Part shown: positions 7,515 to 52,943 of the stretch, piece after piece | Layout of the letters: each line of letters opens with the position of its first letter | How positions within the stretch are numbered: position 1 is the stretch's first letter | Assembly (NCBI RefSeq): GCF_003790525.1 | Contig: NZ_CP033635.1 | Length of the DNA: 64,000 nt | Direction: 5' to 3' (one strand) | DNA from: Escherichia coli | Lineage (GTDB): Bacteria; Pseudomonadota; Gammaproteobacteria; Enterobacterales; Enterobacteriaceae | Made by a program: the position numbers and the translations under genes | The notes under the pieces: generated by a model | What the model was told of the DNA's origin: nothing | What the model saw: the letters and a program-made list of their open reading frames with translations, nothing else | The model's database searches: none

Positions 7515-7534
7515 TTTTACGTCTTCATGCCAAA

Positions 7535-7556
7535 AGGGAGATATCTCCCTTGTTTG
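7535..7556 (+). terminator. Rho-independent terminator candidate downstream of gyrA
   Basis: Perfect 16-bp palindrome AGGGAGATATCTCCCT followed by a T-rich tract. Confidence 0.55.
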
Positions 7557-39714: not shown

Positions 39715-39992
39715 TTTTTTGCTTTCCTTCTTCATTTATAGGTTTTCACCGATGATGTCGCTGAAGGTTAACATATTCATCAGATTTATTAATTTGCTTT
39801 ATGAATAACTTAAAGAACATTCAGATAATTTTACCTGCTCTTTTAGTGTTAAATTCTGATGAGAAAACAAACCAGCAGAAATATCTCTGGCGAATTAATC
39901 GCTATATAAATATGTTTATAACCATTTGAAATGTGAGCAAAAGCCCGTTTTTGCCACGCTTCCCGCCACTCTTTTGATCCTGCTACAGGTTT

Positions 39993-40008
39993 TACCCCGA
40001 TCGGGGTA
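39993..40008 (+). promoter_or_regulatory. NarP/NarL 7-2-7 heptamer pair (TACCCCGATCGGGGTA) in the napF promoter
   Basis: Perfect inverted heptamers with 2-bp spacer ~115 bp upstream of napF; a weaker FNR-like half-site TTGAT lies at 39974-39978. Confidence 0.75.
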
Positions 40009-40121
40009 TGCATCTTTGACACATCCTTTAATATCTTAGCGGCTATAAAAATGGCTTATTAATTATGCGGTTTATTTGGTCGCTCTCAATTTTCAGAGCG
40101 CGTTAATGATGGAAGGTCAAT

Positions 40122-40616
40122 GTGAAGATTGATGCATCCCGTCGGGGCATACTCACTGGTCGCTGGCGCAAAGCCAGTAACGGTATCCGTCCGCCCTGGT
40201 CCGGTGATGAATCTCATTTTCTGACCCATTGCACCCGCTGTGATGTCTGTATTAATGCTTGTGAAAACAACATTCTGCAACGCGGCGCGGGTGGCTATCC
40301 GAGCGTTAATTTCAAAAATAACGAGTGCAGCTTCTGTTACGCCTGCGCGCAGGCTTGCCCCGAATCGCTATTTTCTCCGCGCCACACCAGGGCCTGGGAT
40401 TTGCAGTTCACCATTGGGGACGCGTGCCTGGCGTATCAGTCAGTTGAATGCCGCCGCTGTCAGGATAGCTGTGAGCCAATGGCAATTATCTTTCGCCCGA
40501 CGCTCTCCGGGATCTACCAGCCGCAACTTAATAGCCAACTTTGCAACGGATGTGGAGCATGTGCAGCCAGCTGTCCGGTATCAGCCATAACTGCGGAGTA
40601 TCTCCATGCACACTAA
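40122..40616 (+). CDS. napF: Ferredoxin-type protein NapF, 164 aa (GTG start)
   Basis: Multiple CxxCxxCxxxC(P) 4Fe-4S motifs; SD ggaagg. Confidence 0.92.
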   Translation: MKIDASRRGILTGRWRKASNGIRPPWSGDESHFLTHCTRCDVCINACENNILQRGAGGYPSVNFKNNECSFCYACAQACPESLFSPRHTRAWDLQFTIGDACLAYQSVECRRCQDSCEPMAIIFRPTLSGIYQPQLNSQLCNGCGACAASCPVSAITAEYLHAH

Positions 40617-40869
40617 CTGGCAAGTTTGCAGCCTGGTCGTGCAGGCCAAAAGCGAACGAATTTCAGACATCAGCACCCAACTGAACGCCTTTACCGGCTG
40701 TGAAGTTGCTGTCAGCGACGCGCCGAGCGGTCAGTTGATTGTGGTGGTGGAAGCAGAAGACAGCGAAACGCTGATCCAAACCATTGAGTCAGTACGCAAC
40801 GTAGAGGGCGTGCTGGCGGTGTCGCTGGTTTATCACCAGCAGGAAGAGCAAGGTGAGGAAACACCATGA
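40606..40869 (+). CDS. napD: NapA chaperone NapD, 87 aa
   Basis: K-12 length; overlaps napF and napA. Confidence 0.92.
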
Positions 40870-43352
40870 AACTCAGTCGTCGTAGCTTTATGAAAGCTAA
40901 CGCCGTTGCGGCCGCTGCGGCGGCTGCCGGTCTCAGCGTGCCGGGCGTTGCCCGCGCCGTTGTTGGTCAGCAGGAAGCCATTAAATGGGATAAAGCGCCG
41001 TGCCGTTTCTGCGGTACGGGTTGCGGCGTTCTGGTCGGAACGCAGCAGGGGCGTGTGGTGGCCTGTCAGGGCGACCCGGACGCACCGGTTAACCGTGGCC
41101 TGAACTGCATTAAGGGCTATTTCCTGCCCAAAATCATGTACGGTAAAGACCGTTTGACGCAGCCGCTGCTGCGTATGAAAAACGGTAAATATGACAAAGA
41201 AGGCGAATTTACCCCAATCACCTGGGATCAGGCCTTCGATGTGATGGAAGAGAAATTTAAGACTGCCCTGAAAGAAAAAGGGCCGGAATCGATCGGTATG
41301 TTCGGTTCTGGTCAGTGGACTATCTGGGAAGGTTATGCCGCGTCCAAGTTGTTCAAAGCGGGCTTCCGTTCGAACAACATCGACCCGAACGCGCGTCACT
41401 GTATGGCGTCGGCAGTAGTTGGCTTTATGCGTACCTTTGGTATGGATGAGCCGATGGGCTGCTACGACGACATCGAGCAGGCTGACGCGTTTGTGCTGTG
41501 GGGCGCAAACATGGCGGAGATGCACCCGATCCTCTGGTCGCGCATCACTAACCGTCGTCTCTCTAACCAGAACGTTACCGTGGCGGTGCTTTCTACCTAC
41601 CAGCATCGTAGCTTCGAGCTGGCGGATAACGGCATCATCTTTACGCCGCAATCTGACCTGGTGATCCTGAACTATATCGCCAACTATATCATTCAAAACA
41701 ATGCGATAAATCAGGACTTCTTCAGCAAACACGTTAACCTGCGCAAAGGGGCGACGGACATCGGCTACGGTTTACGTCCGACCCATCCGCTGGAAAAAGC
41801 AGCGAAGAATCCGGGTTCTGACGCCTCCGAACCGATGAGCTTTGAAGATTACAAAGCCTTCGTTGCTGAATATACGCTGGAAAAAACCGCCGAAATGACC
41901 GGCGTGCCGAAAGACCAGTTAGAACAACTGGCGCAGCTGTATGCCGATCCGAACAAGAAAGTCATCTCCTACTGGACGATGGGCTTCAACCAGCATACCC
42001 GTGGTGTGTGGGCCAACAACCTGGTCTACAACCTGCACCTGCTGACCGGCAAAATTTCCCAGCCGGGTTGCGGTCCGTTCTCCCTGACCGGGCAGCCTTC
42101 CGCGTGTGGTACTGCGCGTGAAGTGGGCACCTTTGCTCACCGTCTGCCTGCGGACATGGTGGTGACTAACGAGAAACATCGTGATATTTGCGAGAAGAAG
42201 TGGAATATCCCGAGTGGCACCATTCCGGCGAAAATCGGTCTGCACGCGGTGGCACAAGACCGTGCGCTGAAAGACGGCAAACTGAATGTTTACTGGACCA
42301 TGTGTACCAATAACATGCAGGCCGGACCGAACATTAATGAAGAGCGTATGCCGGGCTGGCGCGATCCGCGCAACTTTATCATCGTTTCCGATCCGTATCC
42401 GACGGTCAGTGCGCTGGCAGCGGACTTGATCCTGCCGACCGCAATGTGGGTAGAGAAAGAGGGCGCTTACGGTAATGCCGAACGCCGTACTCAGTTCTGG
42501 CGTCAGCAGGTACAGGCACCGGGTGAAGCGAAATCGGATCTCTGGCAGTTAGTTCAGTTCTCCCGCCGCTTCAAAACTGAAGAAGTGTGGCCGGAAGAGT
42601 TGCTGGCGAAGAAACCTGAACTGCGTGGCAAAACGCTGTATGAGGTTCTGTATGCCACTCCGGAAGTGAGCAAATTCCCGCTATCCGAACTGGCGGAAGA
42701 TCAGCTGAACGATGAATCCCGCGAGCTGGGCTTCTATCTGCAAAAAGGGCTGTTCGAAGAGTACGCATGGTTTGGTCGCGGTCACGGTCACGATCTCGCG
42801 CCGTTCGATGACTACCACAAAGCACGCGGTCTGCGCTGGCCGGTGGTGAACGGTAAAGAAACGCAGTGGCGTTACAGCGAAGGTAACGACCCGTACGTGA
42901 AAGCGGGCGAAGGCTACAAGTTCTACGGTAAACCGGATGGCAAAGCGGTGATCTTCGCGCTGCCGTTCGAACCTGCGGCGGAAGCACCGGATGAAGAGTA
43001 CGACCTGTGGCTCTCTACCGGACGCGTCCTGGAGCACTGGCATACCGGCAGTATGACTCGCCGTGTACCGGAACTGCACCGCGCCTTCCCTGAAGCGGTC
43101 CTGTTTATTCACCCGCTGGATGCGAAAGCGCGCGATCTGCGTCGTGGCGACAAAGTGAAAGTGGTTTCTCGCCGTGGCGAAGTGATCTCGATTGTCGAAA
43201 CGCGCGGCCGTAACCGTCCACCGCAGGGCCTGGTGTACATGCCGTTCTTCGACGCCGCACAGCTGGTTAACAAACTGACGCTGGACGCGACCGATCCGCT
43301 CTCGAAAGAGACGGACTTCAAGAAGTGCGCGGTCAAACTGGAGAAGGTGTAA
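40866..43352 (+). CDS. napA: Periplasmic nitrate reductase catalytic subunit NapA, 828 aa
   Basis: Tat signal ([19 protein letters not shown]), 4Fe-4S motif CRFCGTGC, molybdopterin oxidoreductase domains. Confidence 0.97.
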
Positions 43353-43358
43353 GCCATT

Positions 43359-44054
43359 ATGTCCCGGTCAGCGAAACCTCAAAATGGTCGCCGCCGCTTT
43401 CTGCGCGATGTCGTTCGCACAGCAGGCGGGCTGGCTGCCGTGGGTGTGGCGCTGGGGTTACAACAGCAAACCGCACGCGCATCTGGTGTGCGGTTGCGCC
43501 CGCCCGGAGCCATAAACGAGAACGCCTTTGCCAGTGCCTGTGTGCGTTGCGGTCAGTGTGTTCAGGCTTGCCCTTACGACACCTTAAAACTGGCGACGCT
43601 GGCTTCTGGCCTGTCGGCGGGCACGCCATATTTTGTTGCGCGGGATATTCCTTGCGAAATGTGTGAGGACATTCCGTGCGCCAAAGTGTGCCCGAGCGGT
43701 GCGCTGGATCGTGAGATCGAATCGATCGACGACGCGCGGATGGGGCTGGCGGTGCTGGTGGACCAGGAAAACTGTCTCAACTTTCAGGGGCTGCGCTGCG
43801 ATGTTTGTTATCGCGAATGCCCGAAAATTGATGAGGCCATCACCCTGGAGCTGGAGCGCAACACGCGTACCGGTAAGCACGCCCGCTTTCTGCCGACGGT
43901 TCACAGCGACGCCTGTACCGGTTGCGGTAAGTGCGAAAAAGTGTGCGTGCTGGAACAACCGGCAATCAAGGTGTTACCGCTGTCACTAGCGAAAGGGGAG
44001 TTAGGTCACCATTACCGCTTCGGCTGGCTGGAGGGGAACAATGGCAAATCGTAA
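43359..44054 (+). CDS. napG: Ferredoxin-type protein NapG, 231 aa
   Basis: Tat-like N-terminus (RRRFLR) and four Cys clusters. Confidence 0.94.
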
Positions 44055-44904
44055 ACGTGACGCCGGGCGCGAGGCGCTGGAGAAAAAAGGCTGGTGGCGC
44101 AGTCACCGTTGGTTAGTGTTACGTCGCCTTTGTCAGTTCTTCGTGCTGGGGATGTTTTTGAGCGGTCCGTGGTTTGGTGTGTGGATCTTGCACGGCAACT
44201 ACAGCAGTAGCCTGTTATTCGACACCGTTCCGCTGACCGATCCGCTGATGACGCTGCAAAGCCTTGCCAGCGGTCATCTGCCTGCCACGGTAGCACTGAC
44301 TGGTGCGGTAATTATCACCGTGCTCTACGCCCTGGCAGGAAAGCGATTATTTTGCAGCTGGGTCTGCCCGCTGAACCCGATTACCGACTTAGCGAACTGG
44401 TTACGCAGGCGCTTTGACCTCAATCAGTCTGCGACGATCCCTCGCCACATTCGCTACGTGCTGTTGGTGGTCATTCTGCTGGGATCGGCCTTAACCGGCA
44501 CGCTCATCTGGGAATGGATCAACCCCGTTTCCCTGATGGGGCGCAGCCTGGTAATGGGCTTCGGTAGCGGCGCGCTGCTTATTCTCGCGCTGTTTTTATT
44601 TGATCTACTGGTCGTTGAACACGGCTGGTGCGGTCACATTTGTCCGGTTGGCGCGCTGTATGGCGTACTGGGTAGCAAAGGTGTGATTACCGTTGCGGCC
44701 AGCGATCGGCAGAAATGTAACCGCTGTATGGATTGTTTTCATGTTTGCCCGGAACCGCATGTGCTACGTGCCCCGGTGCTGGATGAACAAAGCCCGGTGC
44801 AGGTCACCAGCCGCGATTGCATGACGTGCGGTCGCTGCGTGGATGTCTGTTCTGAGGATGTATTTACAATAACTACACGATGGAGTTCGGGAGCGAAATC
44901 ATGA
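44041..44904 (+). CDS. napH: Membrane-bound ferredoxin-type protein NapH, 287 aa
   Basis: Transmembrane helices plus C-terminal CxxCxxC clusters. Confidence 0.94.
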
Positions 44905-45350
44905 AAAGCCATGACCTGAAGAAAGCGCTGTGTCAATGGACGGCGATGCTGGCCCTGGTGGTGAGCGGCGCGGTTTGGGCGGCTAATGGCGTCGATTTTA
45001 GCCAGTCGCCGGAAGTATCCGGGACGCAGGAAGGGGCCATTCGGATGCCAAAAGAGCAGGAACGGATGCCGCTGAACTATGTGAATCAGCCGCCAATGAT
45101 CCCGCATAGCGTTGAAGGTTATCAGGTAACGACCAATACCAACCGCTGCTTGCAGTGCCACGGTGTCGAAAGCTATCGCACCACTGGCGCGCCGCGCATC
45201 AGTCCTACTCACTTTATGGACAGCGACGGCAAAGTGGGCGCGGAAGTGGCTCCGCGTCGTTATTTCTGTCTGCAATGTCACGTACCGCAGGCCGATACCG
45301 CGCCAATCGTGGGGAATACCTTTACCCCATCAAAAGGTTACGGGAAATAA
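44901..45350 (+). CDS. napB: Periplasmic nitrate reductase di-heme cytochrome c subunit NapB, 149 aa
   Basis: Start at MKSHDLKK overlapping the napH stop; two CxxCH motifs (CLQCH). Confidence 0.94.
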   Translation: MKSHDLKKALCQWTAMLALVVSGAVWAANGVDFSQSPEVSGTQEGAIRMPKEQERMPLNYVNQPPMIPHSVEGYQVTTNTNRCLQCHGVESYRTTGAPRISPTHFMDSDGKVGAEVAPRRYFCLQCHVPQADTAPIVGNTFTPSKGYGK

Positions 45351-45359
45351 GAGGTTATT

Positions 45360-45962
45360 ATGGGAAATTCTGACCGTAAGCCTGGTCTGATTAAGCGCCT
45401 GTGGAAATGGTGGCGTACCCCCAGCCGTTTGGCGCTGGGGACGCTACTGTTGATCGGTTTTGTCGGCGGCATCGTCTTCTGGGGCGGCTTTAACACCGGG
45501 ATGGAAAAAGCCAATACCGAAGAGTTCTGCATTAGCTGCCACGAAATGCGTAACACGGTGTATCAGGAATACATGGATTCCGTGCACTACAACAACCGTA
45601 GCGGCGTTCGTGCGACCTGTCCGGATTGTCACGTTCCGCACGAGTTTGTGCCGAAGATGATACGCAAGCTCAAAGCAAGTAAAGAGCTGTATGGTAAAAT
45701 TTTTGGCGTTATTGACACGCCGCAGAAATTTGAAGCTCATCGCCTGACGATGGCACAGAATGAGTGGCGGCGCATGAAGGACAATAACTCGCAGGAGTGC
45801 CGTAACTGTCACAACTTCGAGTATATGGATACAACCGCCCAGAAATCGGTTGCCGCGAAGATGCATGACCAGGCGGTGAAAGATGGGCAAACCTGTATTG
45901 ATTGCCATAAAGGGATAGCGCACAAGCTGCCCGATATGCGCGAAGTCGAGCCAGGTTTTTAA
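45360..45962 (+). CDS. napC: Tetraheme cytochrome c NapC (NapC/NirT family), 200 aa
   Basis: Four CxxCH motifs (CISCH, CPDCH, CRNCH, CIDCH); N-terminal membrane anchor. Confidence 0.95.
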   Translation: MGNSDRKPGLIKRLWKWWRTPSRLALGTLLLIGFVGGIVFWGGFNTGMEKANTEEFCISCHEMRNTVYQEYMDSVHYNNRSGVRATCPDCHVPHEFVPKMIRKLKASKELYGKIFGVIDTPQKFEAHRLTMAQNEWRRMKDNNSQECRNCHNFEYMDTTAQKSVAAKMHDQAVKDGQTCIDCHKGIAHKLPDMREVEPGF

Positions 45963-45974
45963 CAGGGTTATTGC

Positions 45975-46598
45975 GTGGGTATGCTTGAAGCCAGAGAGTT
46001 ACTTTGCGAGCGGGATGAACGAACCTTATTTAGTGGCTTGTCATTTACGCTGAACGCAGGAGAGTGGGTACAAATCACCGGTAGCAACGGCGCGGGGAAG
46101 ACAACGCTTCTCCGTTTGCTGACGGGGTTGTCTCGCCCTGATGCGGGTGACGTTCTCTGGCAAGGGCAGCCCTTGCATCAGGTACGCGACAGCTACCATC
46201 AAAACCTGTTATGGATAGGCCATCAGCCGGGGATCAAAACCCGGCTGACGGCGTTAGAAAATCTGCACTTTTATCATCGCGATGGCGATACCGCACAATG
46301 TCTGGAAGCCCTGGCGCAGGCTGGGCTTGCCGGATTCGAAGATATTCCGGTAAATCAACTTTCTGCCGGGCAACAACGCCGCGTCGCTTTAGCGCGTCTG
46401 TGGCTGACCCGTGCCACGTTATGGATCCTCGACGAGCCTTTTACCGCGATTGACGTTAACGGCGTCGATCGTCTGACCCAGCGTATGGCGCAGCATACGG
46501 AGCAGGGGGGGACTGTGATTCTGACTACCCACCAGCCGCTCAACGTTGCTGAAAGTAAAATTCGCCGCATTTCACTGACGCAAACGGGGGCCGCATGA
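45975..46598 (+). CDS. ccmA: Heme exporter ATP-binding protein CcmA, 207 aa
   Basis: Walker [13 protein letters not shown] signature LSAGQQRR. Confidence 0.95.
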
Positions 46599-47257
46599 TG
46601 TTCTGGCGCATTTTCCGTCTTGAGCTGCGCGTGGCGTTTCGCCACAGCGCCGAAATCGCCAACCCGCTGTGGTTCTTCCTGATTGTCATTACCCTTTTTC
46701 CGCTCAGTATCGGTCCGGAGCCGCAACTGCTGGCGCGTATTGCACCGGGCATTATCTGGGTTGCCGCGCTGCTTTCATCCTTGCTGGCACTCGAGCGACT
46801 GTTCCGTGACGATTTGCAGGACGGCAGTCTTGAACAATTGATGTTGTTGCCGTTACCCTTGCCCGCCGTTGTGCTGGCGAAGGTGATGGCGCACTGGATG
46901 GTAACCGGTCTGCCGTTACTCATCCTTTCGCCCCTGGTAGCAATGCTACTGGGAATGGATGTTTATGGCTGGCAAGTGATGGCGCTGACGCTGCTGCTGG
47001 GAACGCCTACGCTTGGCTTTCTCGGTGCACCGGGCGTGGCGCTGACAGTGGGACTTAAGCGCGGTGGTGTGCTGCTCAGCATACTGGTGTTACCGCTGAC
47101 TATCCCATTACTCATCTTTGCCACCGCCGCGATGGACGCGGCTTCTATGCATTTGCCCGTTGATGGGTATCTGGCAATTTTAGGCGCGTTGCTGGCAGGC
47201 ACCGCGACATTAAGTCCTTTTGCGACGGCGGCAGCGTTACGAATCAGCATTCAATAA
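46595..47257 (+). CDS. ccmB: Heme exporter membrane protein CcmB, 220 aa
   Basis: K-12 length; polytopic; overlaps ccmA. Confidence 0.94.
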
Positions 47258-47298
47258 CGCTGGATTACTGATTTTTGTTCGAGTCTGGTATCGAAACT

Positions 47299-48036
47299 AT
47301 GTGGAAAACACTGCATCAACTGGCGATCCCACCACGGCTGTATCAAATCTGTGGCTGGTTTATACCGTGGCTGGCAATTGCCAGTGTGGTCGTGCTTACC
47401 GTCGGCTGGATCTGGGGATTCGGCTTTGCTCCGGCTGATTATCAGCAGGGAAATAGCTACCGCATTATCTACCTGCATGTGCCTGCGGCGATCTGGTCGA
47501 TGGGCATTTATGCATCAATGGCGGTGGCGGCGTTTATTGGCCTTGTCTGGCAGATGAAAATGGCCAACCTGGCGGTGGCGGCGATGGCCCCCATTGGTGC
47601 CGTGTTTACCTTTATTGCCCTGGTTACCGGCTCTGCATGGGGAAAACCGATGTGGGGCACCTGGTGGGTATGGGATGCACGTCTGACTTCTGAACTGGTG
47701 CTGCTGTTTTTGTATGTGGGTGTGATTGCCCTGTGGCACGCCTTCGACGACCGCCGTCTGGCGGGCCGTGCGGCAGGTATCCTGGTGCTGATTGGCGTGG
47801 TGAATCTGCCGATTATTCATTACTCCGTGGAGTGGTGGAACACCCTGCACCAGGGATCAACGCGGATGCAGCAAAGTATCGATCCGGCGATGCGTTCGCC
47901 GCTGCGCTGGTCGATTTTTGGCTTCCTGCTCCTGTCTGCCACGCTGACGCTGATGCGGATGCGTAATTTGATTTTGCTGATGGAAAAACGCCGTCCGTGG
48001 GTGAGTGAACTGATACTGAAAAGAGGCCGTAAATGA
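47299..48036 (+). CDS. ccmC: Heme exporter protein CcmC, 245 aa
   Basis: Start at MWKTLHQ; W-rich motif WGxxWxWD. Confidence 0.94.
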   Translation: MWKTLHQLAIPPRLYQICGWFIPWLAIASVVVLTVGWIWGFGFAPADYQQGNSYRIIYLHVPAAIWSMGIYASMAVAAFIGLVWQMKMANLAVAAMAPIGAVFTFIALVTGSAWGKPMWGTWWVWDARLTSELVLLFLYVGVIALWHAFDDRRLAGRAAGILVLIGVVNLPIIHYSVEWWNTLHQGSTRMQQSIDPAMRSPLRWSIFGFLLLSATLTLMRMRNLILLMEKRRPWVSELILKRGRK

Positions 48037-48242
48037 CCCCTGCATTTGCTTCCTGGAATGAATTTTTCGCAATGGGCGGTTACGCCTTTTTTGTCTGGCT
48101 GGCGGTGGTGATGACCGTCATTCCGCTGGTGGTTTTGGTCGTGCACTCGGTGATGCAGCATCGCGCAATTCTGCGTGGCGTGGCGCAACAGCGGGCGCGT
48201 GAGGCGCGTTTACGTGCTGCGCAACAGCAGGAGGCTGCATGA
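48033..48242 (+). CDS. ccmD: Heme exporter protein CcmD, 69 aa
   Basis: Small membrane protein; overlaps ccmC and ccmE. Confidence 0.9.
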
Positions 48243-48718
48243 ATATTCGCCGTAAAAACCGCTTGTGGATTGCCTGTGCCGTGTTGGCGGGGCTGGCGCT
48301 GACTATCGGTCTGGTGCTATATGCGCTGCGCTCGAATATCGATCTCTTTTATACGCCGGGGGAAATTCTCTACGGCAAGCGTGAAACTCAGCAAATGCCG
48401 GAAGTCGGTCAGCGTCTGCGCGTTGGCGGGATGGTGATGCCGGGTAGTGTGCAGCGCGATCCCAATTCGCTAAAAGTAACTTTCACCATTTACGACGCTG
48501 AAGGTTCAGTAGATGTCTCTTACGAAGGCATTTTGCCGGATCTGTTCCGTGAAGGGCAGGGCGTTGTGGTGCAGGGCGAACTGGAAGAAGGCAATCATAT
48601 CCTCGCGAAAGAAGTGCTGGCGAAACACGATGAAAACTACACGCCGCCAGAAGTTGAGAAAGCGATGGAAGCCAATCACCGTCGCCCGGCGAGTGTTTAT
48701 AAGGACCCAGCATCATGA
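48239..48718 (+). CDS. ccmE: Cytochrome c-type biogenesis heme chaperone CcmE, 159 aa
   Basis: K-12 length; N-terminal anchor; conserved heme-binding His region. Confidence 0.94.
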
Positions 48719-50658
48719 TGCCGGAAATTGGTAACGGGCTGCTGTGTCTGGCGCTAGGAATTGCGCTGCTGCTGTCCGTGTATCCGCTATGGGGCGTAGC
48801 GCGCGGAGATGCGCGCATGATGGCATCTTCCCGCTTGTTTGCCTGGCTGCTGTTTATGTCTGTGGCTGGCGCATTTCTGGTACTGGTCAATGCCTTCGTG
48901 GTCAACGACTTCACCGTCACCTATGTTGCCAGCAACTCCAATACCCAGCTTCCGGTGTGGTATCGCGTGGCGGCCACCTGGGGCGCGCATGAAGGCTCGC
49001 TCCTGCTGTGGGTGCTGCTGATGAGCGGCTGGACCTTTGCGGTAGCGATTTTTAGTCAGCGTATTCCGCTGGATATTGTGGCCCGCGTACTGGCGATAAT
49101 GGGGATGGTCAGCGTCGGCTTTTTGCTGTTCATTCTCTTTACCTCTAACCCGTTCTCACGCACGTTGCCGAACTTCCCGATTGAAGGTCGCGATCTTAAC
49201 CCGCTGTTACAGGATCCGGGGCTGATCTTCCATCCGCCTCTGCTTTATATGGGGTACGTCGGCTTCTCGGTGGCGTTTGCTTTTGCCATTGCTTCTTTGT
49301 TGAGCGGGCGTCTGGACAGCACTTATGCGCGTTTTACTCGTCCGTGGACGCTGGCGGCGTGGATCTTCTTGACGCTCGGCATTGTGCTCGGTTCCGCATG
49401 GGCCTATTACGAACTCGGCTGGGGCGGCTGGTGGTTCTGGGATCCGGTAGAAAACGCCTCGTTTATGCCGTGGCTGGTGGGGACTGCGCTGATGCACTCA
49501 CTGGCGGTCACTGAACAACGCGCCAGCTTCAAAGCGTGGACATTACTGCTGGCAATCAGTGCCTTCTCGTTGTGTCTGCTGGGGACTTTCCTGGTGCGTT
49601 CCGGCGTGCTGGTATCGGTACACGCGTTTGCCTCTGATCCGGCACGCGGTATGTTTATCCTCGCCTTTATGGTACTGGTGATTGGTGGTTCGCTGCTGCT
49701 GTTTGCCGCGCGTGGACACAAAGTTCGCTCACGCGTAAACAATGCGCTGTGGTCGCGGGAATCTCTGCTGTTAGCGAACAACGTTTTGCTGGTCGCCGCG
49801 ATGCTGGTGGTGTTGCTGGGGACGCTGCTGCCGCTGGTGCACAAGCAACTGGGACTGGGCAGTATTTCGATTGGCGAACCGTTCTTCAACACCATGTTTA
49901 CCTGGCTGATGGTGCCGTTTGCGCTGCTGCTTGGTGTCGGTCCTCTGGTGCGCTGGGGGCGCGATCGCCCACGTAAAATCCGCAATTTGTTGATTATCGC
50001 CTTCATCTCTACGCTGGTGCTGTCGCTGCTGTTGCCGTGGCTGTTCGAAAGCAAAGTGGTGGCGATGACGGTGCTCGGCCTGGCAATGGCCTGCTGGATT
50101 GCGGTGCTGGCAATTGCGGAAGCTGCGCTGCGTATTTCACGCGGCACGAAAACCACCTTCAGTTATTGGGGAATGGTGGCGGCTCACCTGGGGCTGGCAG
50201 TGACAATTGTTGGTATTGCCTTTAGCCAGAACTATAGCGTTGAGCGTGATGTGCGCATGAAGTCCGGCGATAGTGTCGATATCCATGAATATCGCTTCAC
50301 CTTCCGTGATGTCAAAGAGGTGACTGGCCCGAACTGGCGTGGCGGTGTGGCGACTATCGGCGTAACGCGCGATGGCAAGCCGGAAACGGTGCTGTATGCG
50401 GAAAAACGTTATTACAACACTGCCGGGTCGATGATGACCGAAGCGGCGATTGACGGCGGCATCACGCGTGACCTGTACGCCGCGCTCGGTGAAGAGCTGG
50501 AAAACGGCGCGTGGGCCGTGCGTCTTTACTACAAACCGTTTGTTCGCTGGATTTGGGCGGGCGGGCTGATGATGGCGTTGGGCGGACTGCTGTGTCTGTT
50601 TGATCCTCGCTATCGTAAGCGCGTGAGTCCGCAAAAAACTGCGCCGGAGGCTGTATGA
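48715..50658 (+). CDS. ccmF: Cytochrome c-type biogenesis protein CcmF, 647 aa
   Basis: Large polytopic membrane protein with W-rich motif ([12 protein letters not shown]). Confidence 0.95.
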
Positions 50659-51212
50659 AGCGCAAAGTATTGTTAATTCCGTTGATTATCTTCCTGGCGA
50701 TTGCCGCGGCGCTGCTGTGGCAGCTGGCGCGTAATGCCGAAGGGGATGATCCGACCAATCTGGAATCGGCGCTCATTGGCAAGCCAGTGCCGAAGTTTCG
50801 CCTCGAATCACTGGACAATCCGGGGCAGTTTTATCAGGCGGATGTGCTGACTCAGGGCAAACCTGTGCTGCTTAACGTCTGGGCGACCTGGTGTCCGACC
50901 TGCCGTGCGGAACATCAATATCTGAATCAGCTTTCTGCGCAGGGCATTCGCGTGGTCGGCATGAACTATAAAGACGATCGCCAGAAGGCAATCAGCTGGC
51001 TGAAAGAGCTGGGCAATCCTTACGCACTAAGCCTGTTTGATGGCGACGGCATGTTAGGGCTGGATCTCGGTGTCTATGGCGCGCCAGAAACGTTCCTCAT
51101 CGACGGCAACGGCATCATTCGCTATCGCCATGCGGGCGATCTCAATCCTCGCGTCTGGGAAGAAGAGATCAAGCCGCTGTGGGAGAAATACAGTAAGGAG
51201 GCCGCACAATGA
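50655..51212 (+). CDS. ccmG: Thiol:disulfide interchange protein CcmG/DsbE, 185 aa
   Basis: Thioredoxin motif WCPTC. Confidence 0.95.
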   Translation: MKRKVLLIPLIIFLAIAAALLWQLARNAEGDDPTNLESALIGKPVPKFRLESLDNPGQFYQADVLTQGKPVLLNVWATWCPTCRAEHQYLNQLSAQGIRVVGMNYKDDRQKAISWLKELGNPYALSLFDGDGMLGLDLGVYGAPETFLIDGNGIIRYRHAGDLNPRVWEEEIKPLWEKYSKEAAQ

Positions 51213-52261
51213 GGTTTTTATTGGGCGTGCTGATGCTGATGATCTCCGGCTCAGCGCTGGCGACCATCGACGTGTTGCAGTTTAAGGATGAAGCGCAGGA
51301 GCAGCAGTTCCGCCAACTCACTGAAGAACTACGCTGCCCGAAATGCCAGAACAACAGCATTGCCGATTCCAACTCGATGATTGCCACCGACCTGCGCCAG
51401 AAAGTGTATGAACTGATGCAGGAAGGTAAAAGTAAGAAAGAGATTGTCGATTATATGGTGGCGCGTTACGGCAACTTCGTCACTTACGATCCGCCGTTAA
51501 CGCCGCTGACCGTGCTGCTGTGGGTGCTTCCGGTAGTGGCTATTGGCATTGGCGGTTGGGTCATTTACGCCCGTTCGCGGCGTCGGGTACGCGTGGTGCC
51601 GGACGCGTTTCCTGAACAAAGCGTGCCGGAAGGTAAGCGTGCCGGATATATTGTTTATCTGCCGGGTATTGTGGTGGCGTTAATTGTGGCTGGCGTCAGC
51701 TACTACCAGACGGGCAATTATCAGCAGGTGAAAATCTGGCAGCAGGCCACGGCACAGGCTCCGGCGTTACTGGACAGGGCGCTGGATCCGAAAGCCGATC
51801 CGCTCAACGAAGAAGAGATGTCGCGCCTGGCGCTGGGGATGCGTACTCAACTGCAAAAAAATCCGGGAGATATAGAAGGCTGGATTATGTTGGGCCGCGT
51901 TGGCATGGCGCTGGGTAACGCCAGTATTGCCACCGATGCATACGCTACTGCATATCGCCTCGATCCGAAGAACAGTGATGCGGCGCTCGGATACGCTGAA
52001 GCGTTGACACGTTCATCTGATCCCAACGACAACCGCCTGGGTGGTGAACTGCTACGCCAGTTGGTGAGAACTGACCACAGCAATATCCGTGTGTTAAGCA
52101 TGTATGCGTTTAATGCCTTTGAGCAGCAGCGATTTGGCGAAGCCGTTGCCGCGTGGGAGATGATGTTGAAACTCTTACCTGCCAATGATACTCGCCGTGC
52201 GGTGATTGAACGTAGTATCGCGCAGGCGATGCAACATTTGTCGCCGCAGGAGAGTAAATAA
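51209..52261 (+). CDS. ccmH: Cytochrome c-type biogenesis protein CcmH, 350 aa
   Basis: LRCPKC motif; membrane anchor; C-terminal TPR-like region. Confidence 0.94.
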   Translation: MRFLLGVLMLMISGSALATIDVLQFKDEAQEQQFRQLTEELRCPKCQNNSIADSNSMIATDLRQKVYELMQEGKSKKEIVDYMVARYGNFVTYDPPLTPLTVLLWVLPVVAIGIGGWVIYARSRRRVRVVPDAFPEQSVPEGKRAGYIVYLPGIVVALIVAGVSYYQTGNYQQVKIWQQATAQAPALLDRALDPKADPLNEEEMSRLALGMRTQLQKNPGDIEGWIMLGRVGMALGNASIATDAYATAYRLDPKNSDAALGYAEALTRSSDPNDNRLGGELLRQLVRTDHSNIRVLSMYAFNAFEQQRFGEAVAAWEMMLKLLPANDTRRAVIERSIAQAMQHLSPQESK

Positions 52262-52265
52262 AAAG

Positions 52266-52297
52266 AGGCCCGATGGTGATGCCATCGGGCTATTTTT
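52266..52297. terminator. Bidirectional rho-independent terminator between ccmH and narP
   Basis: Stem gcccgatgg / ccatcgggc followed by tattttt; overlaps the narP stop. Confidence 0.7.
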
Positions 52298-52943
52298 ATT
52301 GTGCCCCGCGTTGTTGCAGGAACAGAATGGTGGCCGCCACGCGTGAGCGGACATTGAGTTTACGCAGCAGATTGCGAATGTGTACTTTTACTGTCTGCTC
52401 GGAAATATTCAACACCGAGGCAATCTGTTTATTTGACAGCCCCTGTGCCAGCTCGTGCAGAACATCCAGCTCGCGCTCCGTCAGCACGCTGAAGGGATCT
52501 TCTTCTGCGCCAAACATTTCACGTTCACGTAAGTACTGATTGACGCGTTCGCTAAAGACTTTGCTGCCTTTCGCTCCGGCACGAATCGCTTCCAGCAACA
52601 CTTCCGGGTCGCTGTCTTTCAACAGATAACCGTCTGCGCCTGCGTCTATCAGCGCAAAGACATCGCTGGAGGCATCTGATACGGTCAGGATAATAATTTG
52701 CGCGGTAACGCCATCCCTGCGCAAGGCATTGAGGGTATCCAGGCCACTCATACCTTTCATATTGAGATCCAGTAAGATCACGTCGATATCCAGCCTATTC
52801 GCCAGATCGATCGCGCTCGCGCCGTCGCCCGCTTCGGCGACCACTTCAAAGCCAGGATCAAGCTCCAGTAACTGACGAACACCGCGTCGCATAAGTGGAT
52901 GATCATCCACAATCATCACCTGAAAAGGCGTTGCTTCAGGCAT
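52296..52943 (-). CDS. narP: Nitrate/nitrite response regulator NarP, 215 aa
   Basis: Start at MPEATPFQ; receiver plus LuxR-type HTH. Confidence 0.95.
   Translation of the reverse strand: MPEATPFQVMIVDDHPLMRRGVRQLLELDPGFEVVAEAGDGASAIDLANRLDIDVILLDLNMKGMSGLDTLNALRRDGVTAQIIILTVSDASSDVFALIDAGADGYLLKDSDPEVLLEAIRAGAKGSKVFSERVNQYLREREMFGAEEDPFSVLTERELDVLHELAQGLSNKQIASVLNISEQTVKVHIRNLLRKLNVRSRVAATILFLQQRGAQ

Follow-up and report, generated by a model that had tools for sequence, protein, structure and literature searches.

The napF control region of an Escherichia coli chromosome: a NarP/NarL 7-2-7 site with conserved heptamer cores beside a degenerate FNR site

The napF promoter of Escherichia coli is induced by FNR together with phospho-NarP, while phospho-NarL competes for the NarP site and expression peaks at low nitrate (PMC9262595). 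This site is of the 7-2-7 type, the only arrangement of heptamers that is bound by NarP (PMC2718512; PMC4549865), and napF is one of four genes with a reported NarL/NarP site of this kind (PMC2718512), which has been placed at positions -40 to -49 of its promoter (PMC4549865). In common with the other 7-2-7 sites, such as those of nirB, nrfA, fdnG and yeaR, it is formed by an inverted pair of TACYYMT-type heptamers with a separation of 2 bp. At napF it is NarP that activates and NarL that mainly antagonises (PMC9262595), whereas nirB, fdnG and yeaR are activated by NarL. Occupancy by FNR is documented by a ChIP-seq/ChIP-chip peak at napF/yojO (2301669-2301675 in U00096.2; PMC3688515, Table S5), the PWM score of which is weak, ranking with the lowest of the ChIP peaks (ln p = -5.37 vs. 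-10 to -16 for strong sites), and napF has been classed as needing co-activation by NarP (PMC3688515). The nap genes are also activated by ModE and repressed by IscR (PMC8139620).

Here we compare with these systems the napF control region contained in a stretch of 64,000 nucleotides from an E. coli chromosome (contig NZ_CP033635.1 of assembly GCF_003790525.1), hereafter called the window. The napF promoter was mapped in K-12 MG1655. Its FNR site reportedly lies at -64.5 and its NarP/NarL 7-2-7 site at -44.5, with a ModE site at -133.5 and a Crp site further upstream than those of Fnr and NarP. Papers of 1995-1998 on napF reportedly showed that phospho-NarP binds the 7-2-7 site in vitro and that mutation of the heptamers abolishes this binding.

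The divergent intergenic region between eco and napF spans 386 bp in the window (39736-40121) and is bounded by a minus-strand ORF that ends at 39735 (eco) and a plus-strand ORF with a GTG start at 40122 (napF). It was matched in 5421 of 5426 complete E. coli genomes, each time as a single chromosomal copy, and the best match, with 100% identity, was found in strain SK1144. The gene order in this strain is rcsC-rcsB-rcsD-ompC-apbE-ada-alkB-yojI-mqo-eco on one side, with eco on the minus strand, followed by napFDAGHBC-ccmABCDEFGH on the plus strand and then narP on the minus strand. The flanking genes of the window, namely eco, yojO, napFDAGHBC, ccmA-H and narP, are shared also with K-12, the napF (aeg-46.5) control region of which represents the same locus. 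When aligned with K-12 MG1655 (NC_000913.3), the window has the same base at every position from 39915, upstream of the Crp-like block, through the napF start codon. Seven substitutions separate the two sequences, all of them between 39826 and 39914, in the distal portion of the intergenic region; recognised half-sites are unaffected, and a single substitution falls between the half-sites of the ModE-like site. Since the core promoter equals that of K-12 base for base, the experimental results obtained with the latter carry over to the window without adjustment. A search of Rfam with the segment 39600-40300 returned no match. We consider, with a probability of about 95%, that the E. coli napFDAGHBC(-ccm) operon is controlled from this region in the well-characterised manner, with activation by FNR and NarP and with NarL as competitor. 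The napF promoter present here is thus an already known, textbook region in its wild-type E. coli allele. The coordinates of its features and of the neighbouring genes are collected in table 1.

Table 1. Features of the napF control region and of the downstream genes, in coordinates of the window; promoter positions are relative to the predicted +1.
Feature	Coordinates	Strand	Description
yojO	39849-40013	-	small ORF of 54 codons ('hypothetical protein' in some records); overlaps the FNR and NarP sites
ModE-like site	39900-39923	+	CGCTATATAAATATGTTTATAACC; centre 39911.5 (-133.5)
Conserved block	39926-39947	+	TTGAAATGTGAGCAAAAGC; holds a Crp-like TGTGA half-site (39932-39936); kept in Escherichia and Citrobacter
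FNR site, degenerate, 14 bp	39974-39987	+	TTGATcctgCTACA (also given as TTGATCCTGCTACA); centre 39980.5, equal to -64.5 if +1 is 40045
NarP/NarL 7-2-7 site	39993-40008	+	TACCCCG-AT-CGGGGTA, TACCCCGATCGGGGTA; perfect 16-bp palindrome; centre 40000.5 (-44.5)
Core promoter	40029-40045	+	-10-like TAATAT (40029-40034) inside the invariant AATATCTTA block; predicted start(s) near 40042-40045
napFDAGHBC	40122-45962	+	operon for periplasmic nitrate reductase; GTG start of napF at 40122; annotation of matching record
ccmABCDEFGH	45975-52261	+	cytochrome c maturation; co-oriented with and directly downstream of napC
narP	52296-52943	-	response regulator of 215 aa that binds the 7-2-7 site; convergent with ccmH

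The names of the nap and ccm genes were transferred to window coordinates from the annotation of NZ_AP018784.2. All 15 ORFs are present, co-oriented and without internal stops, and at 10 of their 14 junctions neighbouring genes overlap by 4-14 nt, the remaining four junctions being gaps of 6-41 nt. The initial annotation of this DNA was therefore right in describing the nap-ccm block as complete and extensively overlapping, as it was in stating that narP is encoded about 12 kb downstream in the same window, where the gene lies on the opposite strand at 12.3 kb from the 7-2-7 site. The intergenic region that precedes narP contains a 7-2-7-like element, TACCCCATTTTATGTA (53019-53034), and two perfect 16-bp palindromes are found nearby, one in the 5' coding region of narP (52895-52910) and the other in the same intergenic region (53170-53185); all of these may be due to chance. 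The longest palindrome of the window is a perfect one of 18 bp, AAGGGAGATATCTCCCTT, at 7534-7551 (0.24 expected).

The NarP/NarL site of the window consists of two inverted heptamers with exactly 2 bp between them (39993-40008). It had been located precisely, as TACCCCGATCGGGGTA at these positions, by the initial annotation, which described it as a perfect heptamer pair of the TACYYMT type. The palindrome is indeed perfect, but each of its heptamers, TACCCCG, mismatches TACYYMT at position 7. The site departs from the full pattern TACYYMT-NN-AKRRGTA at two bases, position 7 of either heptamer being G/C where the pattern has T/A; this substitution and its exact palindromic form distinguish it from the other 7-2-7 sites mentioned above. 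At two mismatches the full pattern has three matches in the 64-kb window, vs. 2.84 expected. With the core pattern TACYYM-N4-KRRGTA, which covers heptamer positions 1-6, the napF site is the sole match in the 64 kb where 0.10 are expected, and at least one match to the same pattern appeared in 9 of 100 shuffles; judged in this way, the core match is modestly unlikely to arise by chance in the window. The site is made convincing only by its place inside the 386-bp region upstream of napF and by its conservation. A generic inverted-repeat finder, with the settings used, did not report the 16-bp palindrome. As for the regulators, the literature leads to a correction of the initial annotation, which had named the site after NarP: NarL shares the same site as an antagonist. 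Full-text searches retrieved, from the collection of papers covered, none giving the position of the napF FNR site or the literal sequence of the site, and napF is absent from the MotifAdjuster supplements. The centre of the 7-2-7 site contains a Dam GATC sequence (39999-40002). Three of the four Citrobacter loci lack it, having CAATTG or CGATTG instead, and so does Leclercia, with CCATTG.

The pentamer TTGAT that was initially proposed as possible part of an FNR site is found exactly at 39974-39978 and matches the 5' half of the FNR consensus; it belongs, however, to a full-length degenerate site of 14 bp rather than constituting a lone half-site. (The start at 39977 that the initial annotation gave for its feature falls inside this pentamer, a trivial point). 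In comparison with TTGAT-N4-ATCAA the site matches at 7 of 10 positions, with a perfect 5' half and all three mismatches in the 3' half, where 2 of 5 positions agree. Sites with three mismatches or better number 350 in the window, vs. 253 expected, and by consensus matching on sequence alone the FNR site is indistinguishable from chance. The case for the regulatory sites is made here by their position and conservation, and not by their motif scores. If the coordinates of U00096.2 and U00096.3 are assumed to be shifted by about 1,977 bp, the FNR ChIP peak at napF/yojO would fall at approximately 39967-39973, no more than about 15 bp from the FNR site. A Dam GATC sequence is contained also in the FNR half-site (39976-39979) and is kept in all eight of the cross-genus sequences considered below. 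Another FNR ChIP peak, labelled 'napC' at 2296259 (U00096.2), is among those removed from analysis (Myers et al. 2013, Table S5); it maps to about 45380, at the start of napC, near the napB/napC junction and upstream of ccmA.

The geometry of the promoter was derived by setting the centre of the 7-2-7 site (40000.5) at -44.5, which places +1 at A40045. With this +1, the centres of the FNR site and of the ModE-like site fall at -64.5 and -133.5, respectively, both reportedly the published values, and the fit of all three positions to a single +1 provides a useful internal check. A scan of the napF strand for sigma-70 consensus elements found no -35/-10 pair, which we do not count against the presence of a promoter because this is what is expected when transcription depends on activators. 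The block ACACATCCT (40020-40028, about -25 to -17), downstream of the NarP site and upstream of the -10 region, is invariant in the eight cross-genus sequences and is replaced by ACACAACCT in E. coli strain MFDS1006657; it could be an operator of IscR or be contacted by RNA polymerase. From conservation alone, there would be a slim chance that constraint on the core promoter beyond that due to the regulators placed here, be it on ACACATCCT or on the GATC of the FNR half-site, marks an undescribed input, for example an IscR operator or Dam-sensitive binding of FNR. For the 5' UTR no conserved structure is supported (RNAalifold consensus energy of -1.05 kcal/mol, single-sequence z-score of -0.95), and a terminator-like hairpin at 40067-40083 was dismissed for this reason.

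To compare the region between species, we used a NapF-based scan with one genome per species, which yielded seven usable enterobacterial loci, namely those of E. albertii, one divergent E. coli, four Citrobacter and Leclercia adecarboxylata (12 distant ferredoxin-like matches were left out). In the alignment of eight napF-upstream sequences, the elements TTGATC, TTTACC.C.AT.GGGGTATGC, which spans the 7-2-7 site, ACACATCCT and AATATCTTA are invariant and the flanks diverge. The napF promoters of Citrobacter, Leclercia and E. albertii present the same order and spacing as that of the window, with TTGATC, the 7-2-7 centre 20 bp further on, then ACACATCCT and AATATCTTA. The distance of 20 bp between the centres of the FNR and 7-2-7 sites is the same in all eight sequences from three genera, and the distance between the 7-2-7 centre and the napF start, 121.5 bp in the window, ranges from 120.5 to 122.5 bp in all species. 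The FNR site of these relatives differs from that of the window in its 3' half (CAACA vs. CTACA). Positions 1-6 of the heptamers are kept in Escherichia, Citrobacter and Leclercia, with variation at position 7 and its mirror, which are G/C in E. coli, A/T in Citrobacter and C/T in Leclercia. The complete site accordingly reads TACCCCA-AT-TGGGGTA in Citrobacter and TACCTCC-AT-TGGGGTA in Leclercia, both unlike the window. The deviation of the napF site from the consensus thus falls at position 7, which on these alignments is the least constrained of the heptamer.

Within the species, a 91-bp core (39960-40050) is identical to that of the window in 4917 of 5421 E. coli genomes (91%), and about 9% of the complete genomes differ from it. 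A control segment of the same length, 160 bp upstream (39800-39890), is identical in 1218 of 5350 genomes (23%) and has less than 95% identity in 994. The only common variant in the site has TACCTCG as its left heptamer, unlike the window; it was seen in both single-mismatch genomes that were inspected, those of strain E105 and of an O157 strain, and E. albertii shares it. The change, at the equivalent of position 39997, breaks the palindrome, and TACYYMT is still satisfied at the changed position.

These data bear on the question whether the 16-bp palindrome might have arisen by chance or might be the target of another factor, for example one related to restriction or methylation and recognising CGATCG or GATC, with NarP acting elsewhere in the region. 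Perfect palindromes of this length are not rare, since a direct script found four in the window vs. about one expected, and the score of the napF site against the full 7-2-7 consensus is no better than that of two clearly non-functional sites; a Dam GATC at the centre of the palindrome could moreover fit another factor. Yet the napF site is alone in the window in matching the 6-4-6 core, and its heptamer cores are invariant in three genera in which the centre, GATC included, changes to CAATTG in Citrobacter. Invariant cores around a changing centre indicate selection on TACCYC/GGGGTA and not on the centre. Nor does the 386-bp region offer NarP another place to act, for no further 7-2-7-like element was found in it, and published work puts the NarP site at -40 to -49, in agreement with its location here, and not elsewhere (PMC4549865). 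We therefore regard this explanation as exceedingly improbable in comparison with a NarP/NarL site. A different origin of the conservation could be sought in yojO, which is annotated across the motifs in K-12 and many E. coli genomes and remains an intact ORF in the window, where 3 of its 54 residues differ from K-12. If coding constraint on yojO, rather than binding of transcription factors, had preserved the motifs, the frame should accompany them, but it is not kept in E. albertii, Citrobacter and Leclercia (the longest stop-free stretches lie in other frames or have diverged), where the DNA motifs are invariant. Conservation runs also beyond the start codon of yojO at 40013, through ACACATCCT and AATATCTTA to about 40038, whereas the distal two-thirds of the ORF vary more than any other part of the region between eco and napF. 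With its frame not maintained, its distal part polymorphic and conservation extending past its start codon, yojO is probably not a conserved gene, and we have rejected coding constraint as an explanation that is barely credible.

A functional change of the window promoter with respect to K-12, for instance in the response to molybdate via ModE, would have to come from the seven upstream substitutions, and one of these, G39914 (A in K-12), does fall within the ModE-like site. This single base belongs, however, to the spacer, which is variable, and not to the flanking half-sites CGnTATATA and TATATAAC, which are conserved in Citrobacter; E. albertii has G at the equivalent position, like the window, and the A of K-12 may then be the derived state. 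No difference from K-12 affects the ModE half-sites, the Crp-like block, either of the FNR and NarP sites or the -10 region, and the same 386-bp sequence occurs at 100% identity in other E. coli genomes. An altered promoter is consequently very unlikely, and the wild-type control region remains our preferred reading.

The present analysis shows which locus this is and that its promoter equals that of K-12, where the motifs lie and how they are spaced, how far they are conserved between and within species, and that the operon and narP are intact; binding, the transcription start and the logic of activation and antagonism are taken from the literature. Combined, they suggest the following mechanism. 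In anaerobiosis the oxygen sensor FNR would bind to its weak degenerate site, TTGATcctgCTACA, at about -64.5, and in the presence of nitrate or nitrite a dimer of phospho-NarP would bind to TACCCCG-AT-CGGGGTA at -44.5. With centres separated by 20 bp, or about two helical turns, FNR and NarP would jointly recruit RNA polymerase to a promoter without a usable -35, from which transcription would start near 40042-40045. At high nitrate, phospho-NarL would take the 7-2-7 site and displace NarP, so that expression of napF would peak at low nitrate. The ModE- and Crp-like sites lying upstream would add molybdate and carbon-source inputs.

The region has little discovery value, as the napF promoter is the textbook case of NarP and NarL competing for one site beside FNR. 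What its comparison across genera shows is that the heptamer cores, rather than the centre of the site or position 7, are what selection preserves.
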